A stretch of DNA of 64,000 bases from an uncultured Clostridia bacterium. GTDB taxonomy: Bacteria; Bacillota; Clostridia; Christensenellales; UBA3700. The DNA lies in the NCBI GenBank assembly GCA_946615965.1, contig CAMOIC010000002.1, forward strand, positions 860-64,859, read 5' to 3'. Position 1 is the first letter of the stretch. Every line of letters starts with the position of its first letter. A program made the translations under genes and the position numbers. The notes below the pieces were generated by a model. The model did no database searches. It was not told where the DNA came from and was given only the letters and a program-made list of their open reading frames with translations. Below are positions 4,693 through 12,136 of the stretch, piece after piece.

Positions 4693-6882
4693 TTAACTCC
4701 ATAACCAGAATTTCTTCTTTTTCTTATCGACTTGTTTACTAGTTGTTGTTTGCTTTGGTTTATTAACAGGGTTTGGTGCTTCTACTTTAGCTGCCTTTGT
4801 AGGTGTTGCAGTAGTACTTACGCTTCCTCCCTCATATTGAACCAATCTATCATAATACTCATCAAATAAATTTAAGTTTGGAATAGATATTCTATATTTC
4901 TTTGGAATAGCTTTATATCTATTCTCTAGTTTTGTATATAGTTCCCTACTTGGAACTTTTTCCCTAGGCAATTTAGAGAAATAATTGTTCAAAACATTAG
5001 CATCATTCTTATACTTTTTGTCATAACCATTAGTAAGAGTTTCAGTAAAACCTTTAACATATTTCTTATATTGGTCATCCAAATTCGTATACATCTTTTC
5101 AGCACGAATTAATTGTTCTCTTGTAGGAACTTCTGCTTCTTCAATCTCAGTTAGAACATTCTGAACTCTTGTTATTTCAGTCATCTTCATTTTCTTAGCA
5201 GCATCACCTACAACCTTTCCAATATCGCCTGTTAATTCTTGTTCATCATCAGAAAGGTTCTTATAATCTTCTTGAATTTGAATAATATCATCATAATTTG
5301 GATATTCTTTATTATTCACATAATTCAATCTTGTATTAAAGTCAGAAATCTTATTTTCTCTAATCTTCTTTTTAGCATTTAATATAATTTCTTTTAAGTC
5401 TTCAACATATTTTCTAGAAGCAGGTCCTAGTTTCTCATATAATTGGTGAATTTCTTCAATATCCTCTTCTGTTGGTCTTGGATTAATTCTAAGGTTTTGT
5501 AATGCGGTATTAACTTTTTCTGCACTTAATCTTAAATAATCATCCCTTTCTTTAACTAATCCATCAACGAAGTCCATTTTGCCACTTTGTTTAGCAAATT
5601 TAGATAACACTTTAAAGTTAATCGATTCTTTGAAATTATCATGCATAATAAGCTCTTTTGCACTTTGAGCTTGGAAATCTACAAGCAATTTATAGTACCA
5701 AATTAAGTAGTTCTCAGCATCAATAAGTTCGGCTTTTTTAATTAACTTTCCAGCTTCTTCAAAGTCACCTAAATCTTCAATAGTAACTTTGATGAGTTTT
5801 AATACAGAAACAAGTGCTGGATCCATATGTTCAACTTGCATTCTTCTTGTATCATCTAATGCTTTAGATACTTCTATTCTTTGTTGACCATAAATAGCTT
5901 CCATTAATTTTCTAATGTTATTTCTATTCTCATCAATTTCTTCTTGTTGTTTAGCATCCATATTAATAGGATGAATGATATTATTTAAAGATTCTTCAAT
6001 ATCCTTCATTAATGAGATACCATATTTCAAACCTTGCATATGAGATAACTCAATTGGTAAATCATCTGGAGTAAATCCATCAGTAAAAATAGGAATAATA
6101 CAAGCCTTATTACTACCTGGCTTTGAATCATTTAATTGTAAGAATCTCTTCCATTCGTTTTGTAACCAATGGCTTTCTAGATATTCTTTATGAGAACAAA
6201 TTAATAGCATTACTTTAGCTGTATATAAACCATAATAAATATTTGGTTCATATTCTCTAACTCTAATACCTTTTAGAGACTTTTCACTAAAGAATACTCT
6301 ATATTTTGAAGCAAGCTCAGAGTAGATTTCACTAGCTAAGTCATAATCTGTTGAGAATATGTCTGAATTTAATTCTGTCTTCTTAAAGCAGATAAATACA
6401 TCATATGGTTTTGTCGATTCAATAATCTTAGCTGCTTTTTCACGAGCATCTTCAATAATATTTAATCTATCTTGATAATCTAACAATTTCTCTGGAGATG
6501 TTTTCTTCAGATAATTCATAAATGTTAGATATTGATCAGTCTGTGTTATAGGATTTTCTTTTACTTTAAAGAATGATGGGAATAAATTGCCATTATTATC
6601 TACTTCAAGCATTACTTGTTGATCGCAAAGTAATAATCCCCAATAAGCAGCTGTTAAATCTTCTTCAGGATATTTAGCAATAATTGATTCGTACATAGAT
6701 TTAGCCTTAGAAAAGTCTGCAAATTGTCTTTGAGAATTTGCAATTCTTAAATCAATAAACATCTGGCTATCTGCTTGTCTTTTAGTATATGTGTTACCGC
6801 AAGATTCACAGATGTATAAATCACCCTCTCTTCTACAGTGGGTGCTTAAACATACCGGACATTGAAAGGCTTCTAATTTCAT
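4693..6882 (-). CDS. Zn-ribbon / helical / TIR-domain protein with four 58-aa repeats and a polybasic-aromatic C-terminal tail
   Basis: N-terminal CPVC...CESC ribbon. TIR-like core at about aa 159-290 (YDVFICFKKTE...VMLLICSHKEYLESHWLQNEWKRF). Repeats at about aa 457-680. Ends KKKKKFWLWS. RBS AAGGAG upstream. Confidence 0.75.
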   Translation of the reverse strand: MKLEAFQCPVCLSTHCRREGDLYICESCGNTYTKRQADSQMFIDLRIANSQRQFADFSKAKSMYESIIAKYPEEDLTAAYWGLLLCDQQVMLEVDNNGNLFPSFFKVKENPITQTDQYLTFMNYLKKTSPEKLLDYQDRLNIIEDAREKAAKIIESTKPYDVFICFKKTELNSDIFSTDYDLASEIYSELASKYRVFFSEKSLKGIRVREYEPNIYYGLYTAKVMLLICSHKEYLESHWLQNEWKRFLQLNDSKPGSNKACIIPIFTDGFTPDDLPIELSHMQGLKYGISLMKDIEESLNNIIHPINMDAKQQEEIDENRNNIRKLMEAIYGQQRIEVSKALDDTRRMQVEHMDPALVSVLKLIKVTIEDLGDFEEAGKLIKKAELIDAENYLIWYYKLLVDFQAQSAKELIMHDNFKESINFKVLSKFAKQSGKMDFVDGLVKERDDYLRLSAEKVNTALQNLRINPRPTEEDIEEIHQLYEKLGPASRKYVEDLKEIILNAKKKIRENKISDFNTRLNYVNNKEYPNYDDIIQIQEDYKNLSDDEQELTGDIGKVVGDAAKKMKMTEITRVQNVLTEIEEAEVPTREQLIRAEKMYTNLDDQYKKYVKGFTETLTNGYDKKYKNDANVLNNYFSKLPREKVPSRELYTKLENRYKAIPKKYRISIPNLNLFDEYYDRLVQYEGGSVSTTATPTKAAKVEAPNPVNKPKQTTTSKQVDKKKKKFWLWS

Positions 6883-6891
6883 ATAGAATCT

Positions 6892-8328
6892 CTACTCCTT
6901 ACATTTAAACTCTTGCATTGGTTTTTTCTTGAATTCTATATCCATTAAACCAAGTTGAGTTTTAATTATTTTTCTCATTTCTACTGCAGGCTGTAAGCAA
7001 TATTTCTTAAATAATTCCTTATCTACCTTATCTACATTATCCCAGCATGGGAATAATAATTTAACGAATGCAGTTGTTATTCTCTTTACCGCTTTTGTAT
7101 CTCTTGTATCTGCATCATTTGGCACAACTACAAGTTCATCAACAATTGCTTTTTCTATTACATCTTCTCTAAGAGCATGCATTATTTCTGAGAAATATTC
7201 AGTATTCAATGCCCATCCATTTACTTTCATATTCTCATTCATTCTAGGTACATCCCATCCTTTAATAAATCCGTGGAATCTATCTATTAATGCAGAATCT
7301 TCAAATAACGATGGCAACTCTTCTAGCATGTTAACATTTGTGTCCATCTTTTCTTGTCTTATATTTCCAAGAACGATTACTCCGGCTTTTCCTGCACCTG
7401 ATTTTAGTCCGACATTAAACGTTCCTGATTCAAGATATCCCTTCATTGCACCACGCATTTCATCAATGTCTGGAAACTTAATTGTAGATATCTCATCAAG
7501 TGCTACGTAGTCATAATATGAAACAAGTCCTTCTTGATGCTTATTCATATCATAGAACATTTTTGCTCTTGTCATTACACCGCCAGATACAAGCCATCCT
7601 TTCTTACTAATTTGAGAAAAGATATAACTCTTTCCAGTTCCTTTAGGTGCTAGTTCCATAAGGTTCAATCTTTCTTCAACAAATGGAAGCAATCTTGTAA
7701 GCATTGTTAACTTTTCAAGTTCTGTTTTAAATCCAGCTGCATTGTAATCAATAGCACCTAAGATTACATCTATCCATTCATCAATAGTAAATTGCTCTCT
7801 TGCCTTCTTAAAGAATTCTAGATCTATCTTATATGGTCTAAAATCTTTAAACCCAACAAGAACAATCTTTCCTTCTTGTTTCTTACCTTTAGTTATATTT
7901 TGATATTCTAAATCTAGAATTCCCCAAAACTCGCCATCAGATACAAGGAGTTCTTTTTTATATTTTGTCCAAACACTTTGTGGTATATGTGTTTGTTGGT
8001 ATGTTATCCCAAAATCTGGAAGAGCGAATGTTACTTCAGATGTCTTAATATCTATATTTACTGAAAGCTTAGCTAAAAACCTTACTTTTTCGCCAGATAT
8101 TAATTTATCTAATATGGCATTCCACTCATCTTTACGAGGCATTACGTCTTTAATTTTTTCTAAAACAAAATTAACGTTAACATTTCCATCGGCATCTGCA
8201 TACTTTTTAATAAACCAGTCTCTTATAAAAGCTGGTAAATTAAGAGATGAAAATACACCCTGTAGTGATGACTTTTTAACTATCATCCCATCAAAGCTTT
8301 GTTTTAGCTTTAATTCCACATCGCTCAT
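6892..8328 (-). CDS. BrxL-like AAA+ protein (BREX Lon-like family N-terminal and ATPase regions, no Lon protease domain)
   Basis: 478 aa. Walker A LAPKGTGKSY, Walker B-like YVALDEIS. The blocks FTIDEWIDVILGAI, SALIDRFHGFIKGWDVP and the N-terminal FDGMIVKKSSL...LPAFIRDWF are collinear with BrxL as I remember it. The protein ends where the BrxL protease domain would begin. Confidence 0.65.
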   Translation of the reverse strand: MSDVELKLKQSFDGMIVKKSSLQGVFSSLNLPAFIRDWFIKKYADADGNVNVNFVLEKIKDVMPRKDEWNAILDKLISGEKVRFLAKLSVNIDIKTSEVTFALPDFGITYQQTHIPQSVWTKYKKELLVSDGEFWGILDLEYQNITKGKKQEGKIVLVGFKDFRPYKIDLEFFKKAREQFTIDEWIDVILGAIDYNAAGFKTELEKLTMLTRLLPFVEERLNLMELAPKGTGKSYIFSQISKKGWLVSGGVMTRAKMFYDMNKHQEGLVSYYDYVALDEISTIKFPDIDEMRGAMKGYLESGTFNVGLKSGAGKAGVIVLGNIRQEKMDTNVNMLEELPSLFEDSALIDRFHGFIKGWDVPRMNENMKVNGWALNTEYFSEIMHALREDVIEKAIVDELVVVPNDADTRDTKAVKRITTAFVKLLFPCWDNVDKVDKELFKKYCLQPAVEMRKIIKTQLGLMDIEFKKKPMQEFKCKE

Positions 8329-8340
8329 GTAGATTCTCCT

Positions 8341-9786
8341 TTATAGGCCTAAGTCGTCTTCTTCTAAGCCTTTATTAAATTTAATCTTTTTTCTAGCGAT
8401 TTCATTTTGTGATGAAATAATAACTTCGTACTCTCCTGGTTTTTCAATATTCAATGGTTCAGATACCCATGAATTGAATTTCTTAGAACATAGATAATTT
8501 GCCCCATTTACTTGCAAATATACTTTTTCTAGTTCCTTAGATACAGAAAACTCAACACTTGGCTTCTCCCCTGCCTTCATATTAATAACATCTTCAGCAA
8601 ATGTTACTTCTACAGTTTCATCTTCTTTTTCTTTCTTTACAGTTCCGCCAGTTCTTCCAGCATATTCTTCAAAAGCTTTTAAATCTTTTTGTTTTACTGT
8701 AGGTGGAACTTTAGATAATGCTTTAACAAAATCTTTCATAGTAATATCTGTTAAAACATCAGTCTTAATATAATTGTTTAGAGGATCTTCTTTTGCTCTA
8801 TCACAAACTTCTGCAATATCTGCACCAGAATAACCTTCTGTTACTTTAACAAGCTTCTTAATATCTACATCTTTTCCAAGAGGAACATTATTTAATTGTT
8901 TATTAAACATATATTCTCTTGCTGGAGCATCAGGCAAAGATACATAAATCTTTTCACTAAATCTTCCAGAACGAACAGCTGCACTATCTACATCCCAAGG
9001 TCTATTAGTAGCACCAAGTAATAATAGGTTATCTGTCTTTGATGCAAATCCATCGATTTGTTGTAAGAATTCATTTACACGCTTATCATTGTGCATATCT
9101 TGGCCACGTTGTCCAAATAAAGAATCCATTTCATCAATAAAAATGATAGCAAGCTTATCTTTTTTAGCAGCTTCAAATAATGAAGAAATATTCTTTTCAC
9201 TCTCACCTACATATTTAGATAAGATATCTGATCCTTTAATTGCATAGAATGTAGCACCAACTTCGCCAGCAATGGCTTTTGCTATTAAAGTCTTACCTGT
9301 TCCTGGAGGTCCATATAACAAGACACCACCACCCATTTTCTTACCATACTTGGCATATTTTTCTGGGTACTTAATAGGATTAATCATTCTAGTTAAGATT
9401 GTTTTCTTAACTTCTTCTAGTCCAGCAACATCAGAGAATTTGATATCTGGGATAGCAGAACCTTGCCAAATCTTGCCATTATCTTCATCTTGTTCTTGTT
9501 GTTGACCACCTTGAGAATTATCTCCAGTTCCTGGAACACGTCTAACAGCTGGACGTTTTCTATCTCCACATGCTTCTGCGTTTTCTTGATACATTTTAGC
9601 TTTTTTAATAAGCGATGCCTTTAATTGTTGTGAAGAATATTTACTTGTTTCTAATGCCTTTTGTGCAGCAAGCATATAATACTTCTTAGCAGCAGTATAG
9701 TTGCCAGCAGCCTGACATCTAATTGCATTATTGTAGTAAGTATCCATCATTTCTCTGTAGAAAGACACATCCTTAACTTCAGCCAT
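8341..9786 (-). CDS. Vps4-like AAA+ ATPase (MIT-like N-domain, linker, AAA core, extra C-terminal beta-rich domain)
   Basis: MIT-like three-helix N-terminus YYNNAIRCQAAGNYTAAKKYYMLAAQKALETSKY...KKAKMYQENAEAC. Walker A GPPGTGKT, pore loop KYVGESEK, Walker B IIFIDEMD, ATNRPWDVDSAAVRSGRF. About 100 aa of unrelated C-terminal sequence. Confidence 0.8.
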   Translation of the reverse strand: MAEVKDVSFYREMMDTYYNNAIRCQAAGNYTAAKKYYMLAAQKALETSKYSSQQLKASLIKKAKMYQENAEACGDRKRPAVRRVPGTGDNSQGGQQQEQDEDNGKIWQGSAIPDIKFSDVAGLEEVKKTILTRMINPIKYPEKYAKYGKKMGGGVLLYGPPGTGKTLIAKAIAGEVGATFYAIKGSDILSKYVGESEKNISSLFEAAKKDKLAIIFIDEMDSLFGQRGQDMHNDKRVNEFLQQIDGFASKTDNLLLLGATNRPWDVDSAAVRSGRFSEKIYVSLPDAPAREYMFNKQLNNVPLGKDVDIKKLVKVTEGYSGADIAEVCDRAKEDPLNNYIKTDVLTDITMKDFVKALSKVPPTVKQKDLKAFEEYAGRTGGTVKKEKEDETVEVTFAEDVINMKAGEKPSVEFSVSKELEKVYLQVNGANYLCSKKFNSWVSEPLNIEKPGEYEVIISSQNEIARKKIKFNKGLEEDDLGL

Positions 9787-9796
9787 TTATTACCCC

Positions 9797-10390
9797 TTAG
9801 TTGTTATTTGTTTCTTTAATCTTTTTGCTAATTTCATCTAATTGCTTATCAATATCATCATCACTAACTTCATCCATAGCTAGTTCTTGATCGATAAGAC
9901 TATTAATTTCGTCATCAGAAATGGCATTTGTATCACCTGTATGAGCATTGAACTCTCCTTCTGACATATCTAGATAAATATCCATTTGTTCAGTTTGAGT
10001 TTGAACACCTTCCATAGCGGCTTCAAATTGTTGTTGAACTTTAGCAAAGTCCTTAGAATTTGTTAACTTTGTCATTTCCTTAGATAAAAGACTTAAACCA
10101 CCTAAGAATTCATGAGTCATAACTGTCATATCTTTCATTTGAGAAGTGATTTCAAAGTTCAATAACATCTCTTGAGCTCTTTTTTGTTGAGCCATAGTCA
10201 TTTTTAAACCAGTAACAGCTAAATTATATTGGTTCATTAAACCAAGCTTTTTAGCACGCTTTGCTGCTGAGATATATACTTTCTTTTGATCTTCTAGTTT
10301 AGAAATTTGTTTATTCATTTGGTTAATAGTCTTTTTAACCAACATTTTCTTTTCTATTTCTTTCTCTTGTTTAGTTTTAAATAATCCCAT
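9797..10390 (-). CDS. ESCRT-III superfamily protein, Vps2/Vps24/CHMP3-like
   Basis: 197 aa. MGLFKTKQEKEIEKK N-terminus, then a basic helical hairpin (AAKRAKKLGLMNQYNLAVTGLKMTMAQQKRAQEM), then KDFAKVQQQFEAAMEGVQTQTEQMDIYLD, and an acidic C-terminus ending in an amphipathic DDDIDKQLDEISKKIKE helix. Confidence 0.65.
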   Translation of the reverse strand: MGLFKTKQEKEIEKKMLVKKTINQMNKQISKLEDQKKVYISAAKRAKKLGLMNQYNLAVTGLKMTMAQQKRAQEMLLNFEITSQMKDMTVMTHEFLGGLSLLSKEMTKLTNSKDFAKVQQQFEAAMEGVQTQTEQMDIYLDMSEGEFNAHTGDTNAISDDEINSLIDQELAMDEVSDDDIDKQLDEISKKIKETNNN

Positions 10391-11018: not shown

Positions 11019-11372
11019 TTATTCGTTCGCGCGTCTTTCAACAACTAATTGATTTAAATCTCTTAAATTGTGATTAAGCGCTAAATCACTTCTTAATTTT
11101 CCTCTAGACAAGATTAGCTTTAGAGAATCCAATTTATCTGATATCTCTTTATCTATTCTCTCTACTTCTTCTGAAACAACAGGATTTGAATATTTAATTT
11201 CGATATATAAATCCTTTAATTGTTGTTCAATAGAATGATTACTCTTTGCTAAAACAATTAGCATATTAATCTTTTCTGCATTTTTATCTAAAGTTTTCTT
11301 AACTTGCATAACTTTAGCAACATGTGCAGGAGAGATATCTATAATTTCTTTATCTTTAACAAATAATCCCAT
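11019..11372 (-). CDS. Small all-helical protein sharing the MGLF N-terminus (function unknown)
   Basis: 117 aa, MGLFVKDKEII..., heptad-like helical sequence. Start overlaps the stop of the SPFH gene (TAATG). No family recognised. Confidence 0.45.
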   Translation of the reverse strand: MGLFVKDKEIIDISPAHVAKVMQVKKTLDKNAEKINMLIVLAKSNHSIEQQLKDLYIEIKYSNPVVSEEVERIDKEISDKLDSLKLILSRGKLRSDLALNHNLRDLNQLVVERRANE

Positions 11373-12136
11373 TATTCTACCCTCGCTCCACAGTTATTAC
11401 AGAATTTACTTCCTGCGACAATTATATGGCCACATCTTGGACAAACATCTTGTTTTGTTCTTGCAGCTTTTGACTTATCCATATATCTATCTGAGATATT
11501 GACATTAGAAATTAAAAATGAAGAAATCTCTAATCCATATTCTCTATACAAAGCTTTATCTAAAGATTGTCTAATCTCATAAGACATAGCCATTTTATCT
11601 TCTGCGATTCTATCTAATGGCACTTCATTAACTGCCACATATTCAAGAATGCATGGTTCAATATATGATAAGATTTTACCCTTTAGTCTTTCTTTTAAAT
11701 CTTCTAAAGAAAATCTCTTATTAACACCAACAAGTTCTAAATAGAATTGTCTTGGATTCTTAACACGAAGTTCAATTTCTCCATTAGCACCCATTTTTGC
11801 AGGATTATCTGTGATTGGATCATGAATATCAAACAATGCAGGTGTTCCCCAAAGCACTTTAACTTTGGCTGTTTTTGATATATAGAAAAACTCAATTCTT
11901 GATGGGTCTTGCTTCTCTATTGAGAATGGAGAATTCTTATCTTGTAATTTATAAACGCCAGGTTTTATAGTTTCTAAAGCAATGCCATCTTTAAGAACAA
12001 TAGCAACATGAGTTTCGTCTATAATCACTTTTGAGTCCGAATTAATAGAAGAGATACTCTTTCTTATGAATAAATCATCATTAGAGATCTCACTTTTGTT
12101 TAAAAACACAACTTTTGAGTCTGTAGTTGTAGCCAA
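11372..12136 (-). CDS. SPFH/Band-7-like protein with C-terminal Zn-ribbon (YdjI / COG4260-like)
   Basis: 254 aa with a TTG start 7 nt after AGGAGG. Blocks THVAIVLKDGIA...PGVYKL, KVLWGTPALFDIHDP and GLEISSFLISNVNISD parallel B. subtilis YdjI as I recall it. C-terminal CPRCGH...CNNCG ribbon. Confidence 0.7.
   Translation of the reverse strand: MATTTDSKVVFLNKSEISNDDLFIRKSISSINSDSKVIIDETHVAIVLKDGIALETIKPGVYKLQDKNSPFSIEKQDPSRIEFFYISKTAKVKVLWGTPALFDIHDPITDNPAKMGANGEIELRVKNPRQFYLELVGVNKRFSLEDLKERLKGKILSYIEPCILEYVAVNEVPLDRIAEDKMAMSYEIRQSLDKALYREYGLEISSFLISNVNISDRYMDKSKAARTKQDVCPRCGHIIVAGSKFCNNCGARVE

Follow-up and report, generated by a model that had tools for sequence, protein, structure and literature searches.

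Does the C-terminal tail of a small helical protein encoded next to a MIT-domain ATPase in a bacterial genome serve to dock that ATPase, in the way that MIT-interacting motifs of type 1 (MIM1) do in eukaryotic ESCRT-III proteins? The locus that raises this question lies in a stretch of 64,000 nucleotides of contig CAMOIC010000002.1, from an uncultured gut Clostridia bacterium, and this whole stretch is referred to here as the window. In it, gene p197 and the gene for a Vps4-like ATPase lie side by side on the minus strand. A conserved MIM1-type tail beside a MIT-AAA ATPase would be the handshake that defines a functional ESCRT-III/Vps4 pair, and the earlier note on this DNA, made from the sequence alone, had proposed such a tail as the link between p197 and the adjacent MIT-ATPase. 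The proposal is supported by the conservation of the tail, the near-canonical tails of relatives, a genuine MIT fold in the ATPase, near-obligate adjacency of the two genes and an AlphaFold2 model, of high confidence, in which tail and MIT are fused, all of them found by computation. In our judgement it is quite probable that the tail binds to the MIT domain, whatever the mode; that alpha6 of p197 (residues ~177-191) does so as a helical MIM1 (Type-1) motif is the reading we favour, at a little better than an even chance. The features on which the argument turns are the following.

9797-10390, minus strand: gene p197, encoding a protein of 197 amino acids (aa) that is ESCRT-III-like by predicted fold; it has five to six helices and is basic in its N-terminal half and acidic in its C-terminal third
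9884-9922, minus strand: alpha5-like helix of p197, residues 157-169, ISDDEINSLIDQE, directly upstream of the acidic linker
9818-9862, minus strand: MIM1-like tail core of p197, residues 177-191, DDDIDKQLDEISKKI, with D1, I4, Q7, L8, I11, S12, K13, K14 and I15 in motif numbering
9800-9817, minus strand: variable last six residues of p197, KETNNN (192-197), outside the conserved motif, at 1.3-2.2 bits and of varying length
8341-9786, minus strand: gene for the Vps4-like MIT-AAA+ ATPase, 481 aa, with MIT, flexible linker, one AAA domain, lid, Vps4_C helix and an additional C-terminal domain
9553-9765, minus strand: MIT domain of the ATPase, residues ~8-78, a three-helix bundle by Foldseek and profile and the proposed receptor of the tail

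Conservation and register of the p197 tail

The C-terminus of p197 reads ...SDDDIDKQLDEISKKIKETNNN / ...EVSDDDIDKQLDEISKKIKETNNN, as the earlier note had quoted it, and window positions 9800-9862 encode residues 177-197, DDDIDKQLDEISKKIKETNNN. The note had also placed the segment at the extreme C-terminus after an acidic linker, and this agrees with the AlphaFold2 model of p197, in which the tail is the final helix (H177-196), preceded by an acidic linker of low confidence. Hence, the tail has the location of a MIM1, near the extreme C-terminus, helical and behind a flexible acidic linker. The sample available for comparison comprised 549 homologues, 80 species-level loci from Christensenellales-like Clostridia, and 492 representatives obtained by clustering at 50 % identity. 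Among 187 distinct close sequences, to which the column counts below refer, the tail is the best-conserved part of the C-terminal third of p197: residues 181-190 average 3.15 bits, compared with 2.1-2.6 bits in the preceding linker blocks. Before the linker, alpha5 (a model helix at 159-173) has nearly invariant D159, E161 and I166.

The consensus of the tail is I180-D-K-E183-[LIM]-E-E-[LVI]-[RK]188-K189-K190-[ILM]191, with I180 present in 172 sequences, D181 in 168, E183 in 172, R or K at 188 in 151, K189 in 174 and K190 in 171. In motif numbering the conserved family register is D1-x-x-I4-x-x-(E/Q)7-L8-x-x-(L/I/V)11-(R/K)12-K-K-(I/L/M)15, where I4, D5, E7, K13 and K14 are nearly invariant, position 4 is I, L or V, and positions 8, 11 and 15 are always L, I, V or M. 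The corrected register of the window copy is therefore D177 at position 1, I180 at 4, Q183 at 7, L184 at 8, I187 at 11, S188 at 12 and I191 at 15. The earlier note had instead set D181 at position 1, L184 at 4, I187 and S188 in place of R7 and L8, I191 at 11 and K192 at 12. That register is off by four residues and is not conserved: its supposed K12 column holds E, D or N in 150 of the 187 sequences and K in 12, its supposed R7 L8 columns are [LVI][RK], and the pattern is found within the last 25 residues of two of 80 orthologues.

The family consensus satisfies five of the six MIM1 positions, E replacing R at position 7. The hydrophobic positions 4, 8 and 11 are filled in the window by I180, L184 and I187. 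Position 12 is R in 95 sequences and K in 56 (151 of 187), and in the window it is Ser188, followed by K189 and K190; the conserved K13-K14-Phi15, where Phi is a hydrophobic residue, lengthens the helix beyond the MIM1 core. Judged from its sequence, the window tail is a weakened, degenerate copy of the motif (Q7, S12).

The last codons of p197 and its stop overlap the ribosome-binding site (RBS) of the ATPase gene (TAAGGGG), and a constraint on this site or on translational coupling was considered as the cause of the conservation. It is excluded by 13 loci in which p197 and the ATPase gene are 1.5-4 kb apart, with a TIR gene or other DNA between them: since the motif is conserved equally at this distance, the conservation of the tail is not driven by the RBS.

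Chance level and enrichment in the family

The 1239 open reading frames (ORFs) of at least 100 aa in the same genome provided the chance background. A relaxed hydrophobic pattern occurs within the last 25-28 residues of 4-7 % of them, and the pattern in the register of the earlier note in 0.9 %. The window match by itself is not beyond chance; the signal lies in conservation and in enrichment in the family. The pattern [DE]xxPhixxxPhixxPhi is found in the last 28 residues of 46 % of 102 stand-alone representatives of clusters at 50 % identity, compared with 6.8 % of the ORFs of the genome. Near-canonical MIM1 tails, basic at both 7 and 12, are present in 12 % of the 102 diverged representatives and in one of 1239 ORFs (0.08 %), an enrichment of ~150-fold. 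Examples are DEDIERRLQEIR (L085), EQLSERIGKLK (L093), DAYLSKKLAEMK (L087) and ALDEKLARLR (P0232), and of these DEDIERRLQEIR, EQLSERIGKLK and, in the last, LDEKLARLR fit the eukaryotic MIM1 consensus in full.

The MIT domain of the adjacent ATPase

The ATPase has the architecture of Vps4 and CdvC, namely a MIT domain, a single classical AAA domain and a Vps4_C helix. Pfam matches above cut-off are AAA (6.8e-42), AAA_lid_3 and Vps4_C (3.7e-8). The CdvC model aligns with residues 10-376 at 2e-61, which is below its equivalog cut-off, and yeast Vps4 (5uie) aligns with residues 32-352. The pore-loop sequence is SKYVGESEK. An extra C-terminal domain of ~100 aa (window positions 8341-8640, residues ~383-481) is foreign to Vps4 and gave only a faint match, to DUF7862. 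The window ATPase is thus a long form (480-527 aa); most relatives are ~370-390 aa long and do not have the extra domain, and all ten BrxL-bearing loci among the 80 have the long form.

The N-terminus of the ATPase is conserved in all loci, the first part as ...F-x-x-Y-x-x-x-A-K-x-A-x-x-x-G-N-x-x-L-A-K-R-N-Y-L-L-A-A-E-T-L-L-K-L-A-K and the later part as L-K-x-A-R-x-E-R-A-K-R-L-V-E-I-A-E-N-L. A profile of this region compared with the Protein Data Bank (PDB) matched the MIT domains of 2mpk (8e-4), Sulfolobus CdvC (2w2u, 0.014) and VPS4A/B (0.035-0.044). The top Foldseek matches of the MIT model were 2w2u, 2v6y, 1yxr (template modelling score, TMt, 0.74; root-mean-square deviation, rmsd, 1.5 Å), 2jq9 and MITD1 4a5x (TMt 0.79), over a range of TMt 0.66-0.79 and rmsd 1.5-3.1 Å, and the three-helix arrangement of a MIT domain is found. 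When the 1.34-Mb genome was scanned with the MIT profile, the one match was that beside p197.

The groove positions that a MIM1 would need are kept in most relatives. The profile alignment sets RLVE(I/L)AE of the family onto EYLDRAE of VPS4B, so that the equivalent of VPS4A L64 is V, I or L in 67 of 72 pairs and the equivalents of D65 and E68 are acidic (E or D). In VPS4A, L64D abolishes MIM1 binding (PMC11218997). The window MIT keeps both acidic residues and has Q at the L64-equivalent.

Linkage of p197-like and MIT genes

The two genes occur together in 79 of the 80 species-level loci; the other genes of the module, described below, were found in 77 (p205), 73 (SPFH), 35 (TIR) and 10 (BrxL). 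In nine distant loci sampled (L081-L094), the next or next-but-one gene downstream of the p197-like gene starts with a match to the MIT profile in every case, scoring 37-82 bits against a profile built without those loci. One of them, L082:1090-2043, carries its MIT-like domain on an AAA+ ATPase of the SpoVK/EccA/CbbX class (TIGR02881, 1e-73), not the Cdc48/Vps4 class. Here too the gene immediately upstream is p197-like, and the tail of its product, IDEKINSIRSQI, is basic at position 7. Since the MIT domain here sits on another class of AAA+, it is the MIT domain and not one particular motor that tracks the p197-like gene. Where p197-family paralogues stand in tandem (L091 and L093), the copy adjacent to the ATPase bears the amphipathic helix. 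Locus L081 also encodes a second AAA ATPase, which does not match the MIT profile.

Model of a tail-MIT fusion

In 21 relatives the reading frame of p197 continues through a short spacer into that of the ATPase and, with the stop codon read as Gly, a natural read-through fusion results. Because the two ORFs in the window are out of frame and a fusion of its own proteins is impossible, the relative L028 was modelled. The construct consisted of the last 42 residues of p197, the stop as Gly, the 7-aa spacer and MIT residues 1-78, and the alignment held 21 paired rows (L028 and 20 others) and 108 unpaired tail or MIT fragments. The AlphaFold2 model has a mean predicted local distance difference test (pLDDT) score of 85.4 and a predicted template modelling score (pTM) of 0.76, and none of the five models has a pLDDT below 82.8. 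The three MIT helices (construct residues 55-74, 78-98 and 101-119) have pLDDT 93-97, alpha5 80-85 and the spacer 48. The tail helix (construct residues 22-39, MIM positions 1-15) reaches 88-92, whereas the tail scored 58-64 when p197 was modelled by itself, though alignment depth was unequal between the two models. The predicted fusion speaks to confident docking of the L028 tail and not to its site on the MIT.

Covariation between tail and MIT was also examined by mutual information over 72 distinct pairs. Among the top 15 of 1035 couplings were those of tail position 8 with MIT helix-2 columns 30, 34 and 38, which lie on one helical face, of position 15 with the L64-equivalent, and of position 14 with the E68-equivalent. 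These couplings would fit a parallel Type-1 geometry; the signal is weak because the sequences share descent and, being too weak and confounded by phylogeny, covariation was set aside as a test of docking. In the window and in its nearest relative, L012, Glu7 of the tail is replaced by Gln, and the fifth residue of MIT helix 3, elsewhere almost always Arg, is Leu (window) or Gln (L012), a possible co-drift of a salt-bridge pair. The correlation is partial, as L001, L023 and L032 have lost the helix-3 Arg and kept Glu7.

Relationship of p197 to ESCRT-III proteins

Searches with p197 gave no match at threshold in Pfam, NCBIfam or PADLOC. Snf7 (PF03357) was the commonest weak Pfam match, seen for 15 of 39 family members with a best E-value of 0.005, and for the window copy at E=6.2. 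Comparison of the p197 profile with the PDB retrieved no ESCRT-III chain and only spurious matches to S100 and FlgM, and hhalign gave probabilities of 8 % against CHMP3 and 3 % against CHMP2A. These null library, PDB-profile and hhalign results provide no sequence-level proof of p197 as a Snf7/CHMP protein, and the label Vps2/24-like given to it in the earlier note has no support from sequence.

The AlphaFold2 model of p197, built with 39 relatives, is all-helical and of medium confidence (mean pLDDT 63.6). Its helices (7-48, 52-109, 113-149, 159-173 and 177-196) fit in order and length the ESCRT-III fold, in which a long alpha1-alpha2/3 hairpin precedes alpha4, alpha5 and a C-terminal tail, and the top Foldseek matches in the PDB were CdvB, CdvB2, CHMP2A-CHMP3, IST1-CHMP1B and Asgard ESCRT-IIIB (E 0.035-0.35). 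As the support is a predicted fold and the sequence comparisons are null, we call p197 ESCRT-III-like, by predicted fold only, and not Vps2/24-like.

Distant relatives of p197 form the N-terminal domains of larger motor proteins, fused to a RuvB-like AAA+ (P0162, P0166, P0183, P0222 and P0251) or to an FtsK/HerA-like translocase (P0169, P0171, P0172 and P0188), and two of the RuvB-like fusions have a C-terminal NERD-like domain. It is unusual for an ESCRT-III-like module to be part of the same polypeptide as an ATPase of the DNA type.

How the tail may dock

If alpha6 is a MIM1-type motif, p197, probably with p205 and the SPFH protein, would assemble on a membrane, and its acidic linker would present the short amphipathic helix. 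The hydrophobic face of this helix (I4, L8, I/L11 and I15) would dock on the three-helix MIT of the neighbouring ATPase, the likeliest site being the groove between helices 2 and 3, with the tail parallel to helix 3. Type-1 MIMs bind in this way, lying between helices 2 and 3 and running parallel to helix 3 (PMC9477494). In this orientation the N-terminal half of the tail, which is acidic (D1 D2 x I D K E7 L E E), would come to lie opposite the basic N-terminal half of MIT helix 3 (K-x-A-R-x-E-R-A-R/K-R), and R/K12-K13-K14, which are basic, opposite the acidic V-E-I-A-E with the equivalents of L64 and of the acidic pair D65/E68. Glu7 would there meet a basic patch, with the charges of the eukaryotic Arg7 contact exchanged. 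Many weak tail-MIT contacts along the polymer would recruit the hexameric ATPase, and this would pull subunits through its pore (pore loop KYVG) and so remodel or disassemble the polymer. The groove, the orientation, the binding itself and the ensuing action of the ATPase are in this scheme what we infer. In the window pair, binding may be weaker or may lean more on alpha5, because of Q7 and S12 in the tail and Q at the L64-equivalent of the MIT.

A number of observations weigh against a MIM1-type motif. In place of the Arg expected at position 7, 172 of 187 close relatives have Glu and the window has Gln, a basic residue being found there only in a subset of diverged relatives; the strict MIM1 consensus is matched by no close orthologue, and the window tail is without a basic residue at 12 (Ser), while its MIT has the Q already noted. 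The fusion that was modelled is covalent and comes from L028, not from the window proteins, and a tethered amphipathic helix may dock spuriously. In that model alpha5 is also confident, which makes a two-helix wrap possible instead of Type 1. For the ESCRT-III membership of p197 the basis is a medium-confidence model (pLDDT 63.6), together with Foldseek matches whose E-values are no better than 0.035. Locus L094 has a MIT-ATPase beside a p197-like protein that is without a terminal amphipathic helix, and the homologues fused to RuvB-like (some with NERD) or FtsK-like ATPases retain the tail motif IDxELDxL. The retention of this motif suggests a further function of the helix that does not involve MIT, and its first half may also serve the polymer or autoinhibition.

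The tail might bind the MIT in a mode other than Type 1: by an alpha5+alpha6 wrap, as CHMP5 does on LIP5 (Type 5), in the helix 1/3 groove (Type 3), or antiparallel (Type 7). At least seven modes of MIM binding by MIT domains are described, and a single helix may change from one mode to another (PMC9477494). The charge at position 7 is the opposite of that in MIM1, and the confidence of both alpha5 (80-85) and alpha6 (88-92) in the fusion model implies that both touch the MIT or each other. We nonetheless think such a mode unlikely, since the 4/8/11 hydrophobic spacing with a basic residue at 12 is the MIM1 pattern and is fully canonical in some relatives, the groove positions equivalent to L64, D65 and E68 are conserved, and the charge pattern suits the parallel arrangement along helix 3.

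A further explanation takes the tail to be an internal element of p197, either an autoinhibitory lid or a contact between polymer subunits, its likeness to MIM1 being a by-product of an amphipathic helix and the ATPase recognising p197 in another way. The C-terminal region of eukaryotic ESCRT-III proteins also mediates autoinhibition, and the relaxed pattern is common (4-7 % of ORF tails in the genome). Both the fusions, which retain IDxELDxL without a MIT, and L094, with a MIT-ATPase and no such tail, would be expected of an internal element. Against it, the tail is not confidently packed in the model of p197 alone (pLDDT 58-64), and the fused homologues have lost precisely the basic R/K-K-K-Phi half that MIT-linked ones retain. 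The MIT also follows p197-like genes through a change of ATPase class, and near-canonical MIM1 tails are ~150-fold enriched; taken together, these make an internal element distinctly improbable.

That the tail recruits another operon partner (the SPFH or TIR protein or the BrxL-like ring) and not the ATPase is very improbable. In its favour, the genes are close-packed on one strand and co-transcribed in the window, and docking by a short helical tail is a generic device. Against it, the tail is conserved in all 80 loci, of which only 10 have BrxL and 35 have TIR, SPFH is absent from some loci that retain tail and ATPase, and the N-terminus of the TIR protein has no similarity to the MIT profile. 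The last result also disposes of the idea that the TIR protein, by its TPR-like N-terminus, offers another MIT-like receptor.

Gene neighbourhood and operon

p197 and the ATPase gene belong to a compact operon, the remaining genes of which are as follows.

11372-12136, minus strand: gene that opens the conserved module, for a zinc-ribbon SPFH/Band-7 protein (Pfam Band_7_1, 1.6e-19)
11019-11372, minus strand: helical protein of 117 aa
10390-11007, minus strand: p205, a helical partner of 205 aa, upstream of p197
6892-8328, minus strand: BrxL-like protein
4693-6882, minus strand: TIR protein

The order is SPFH, the 117-aa protein, p205, p197, ATPase, BrxL-like and TIR, all close-packed on the minus strand and downstream of ftsZ. 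At window positions 9787-9799, the p197 stop and the bases that follow (TAAGGGG, then TAATAAATG) make up the RBS and start of the ATPase gene, and the spacer between the two ORFs, which are out of frame, is 10 nt. The overlap of the p197 stop with the RBS and the start of the ATPase gene 10 nt away suggest translational coupling of p197 and the ATPase, the proposed partners.

The tail of p205 does not form a MIM1-like terminal helix. Its conserved motif, DDxLLAMFE, lies ~30 residues before the C-terminus (within the last 45 residues), and in the majority clade the C-terminus is KKKKMKMEE; neither is MIM1-like. The only stretch that hhalign aligned between p197 and p205 was alpha5 of p197 with DDQLLAMFEE of p205, at a probability of 0.3 %, and homology of the two was rejected; they are not called paralogues here.

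A core of SPFH, small helical, p205-like, p197-like and MIT-AAA genes recurs in the distant loci L081, L083, L085, L087, L091, L093 and L094. The neighbours of this core change from locus to locus and include a trypsin-like protease, a TIR-FHA protein, a PP2C phosphatase, an FHA-Ser/Thr kinase, BrxL plus TIR, and a helix-turn-helix (HTH) regulator. A changing set of neighbours of this kind is typical of conflict or stress-signalling systems.

Comparison with known systems

The closest parallel is the eukaryotic MIM1. In the family consensus, as in eukaryotic MIM1, the hydrophobic residues are at 4, 8 and 11, an acidic residue is found at 1-3 and a basic one at 12. The window tail DDDIDKQLDEIS resembles the human CHMP2B tail, DEEIERQLKALG, which likewise has I4 and Q7. 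The Type 1 motifs of Vps2/CHMP2, Did2/CHMP1 and IST1 on the Vps4 MIT (2jq9, 2v6x and 4u7y) are C-terminal amphipathic helices after an acidic linker, as here, and their partner is also a three-helix MIT that starts a single-ring AAA+ ATPase with a Vps4_C helix. In most relatives helix 3 keeps the hydrophobic L64-equivalent and acidic D65/E68-equivalents of the Vps4 MIT. The differences are that the host is bacterial (Clostridia, Christensenellales-like), that position 7 is Glu or Gln in the clade of the window and position 12 is Ser in the window itself, that the K13-K14-Phi15 extension is present, and that p197 is without demonstrable sequence homology to CHMP proteins. The setting also differs, the module carrying SPFH and, variably, TIR, BrxL, protease and kinase genes, and not ESCRT-I/II.

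Archaeal CdvB binds CdvC through a MIM2, which is extended and rich in proline and lies in the groove between helices 1 and 3. The CdvB-CdvC pair of Sulfolobus (2w2u and 2v6y) resembles the present one in being encoded in a prokaryotic operon for a MIT-AAA ATPase and a protein of ESCRT-III fold, a fold that is predicted in the case of p197; the CdvC MIT was the top Foldseek match for the MIT model, and CdvB and CdvB2 were the top matches for p197. Unlike the CdvB MIM2, the p197 tail is helical and contains no proline, and there is no CdvA. A role in cell division is not implied, because the host has FtsZ, FtsA and FtsQ, all encoded beside the module.

PspA and Vipp1, the bacterial members of the ESCRT-III superfamily, are bacterial membrane proteins of ESCRT-III fold, the fold predicted for p197, and for PspA, whose SPFH partner is YdjI, an association in the genome with a Band-7/SPFH zinc-ribbon protein is on record (PMC10936438, PMC11237479). 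PspA systems, unlike the p197 module, have no MIT-AAA partner and no MIM. A 2025 review states that a Vps4-like ATPase appears to be absent from bacteria (PMC7619361), whereas a survey of phage shock protein (PSP) systems reported VPS4-like ATPases transferred into bacteria, with snf7 displaced by a TPR/6TM gene (PMC11237479), an arrangement that differs from the p197 module. Literature searches found no description of a bacterial p197 module or of its tail. At the computational level, the pairing of tail and MIT is supported as a bacterial variant of the known MIM-MIT coupling.

Implications

A conserved tail of MIM1 type beside the MIT-AAA ATPase would turn a curiosity of gene neighbourhood into a bacterial system that is directly testable with a peptide and an 80-residue domain. 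The replacement of Arg by Glu at position 7, set against the basic stretch on MIT helix 3, would provide a natural charge-swap variant for the study of MIT specificity, and the pair would bear on the age, or the transfer, of the MIM-MIT code. We suggest, tentatively and at somewhat less than an even chance, that the helical MIM-MIT code is a portable adaptor that is also bacterial, rather than an invention of archaea and eukaryotes, and that ESCRT-III-like proteins of Clostridia recruit by it any AAA+ motor carrying the cognate MIT. On such a reading the motors recruited would be of at least two classes, Vps4/Cdc48-like and SpoVK/CbbX-like. If this is true, the adaptor would couple the remodelling of a membrane polymer to variable effectors (TIR, BrxL, protease, and kinase/phosphatase) in systems that resemble those of conflict or stress.

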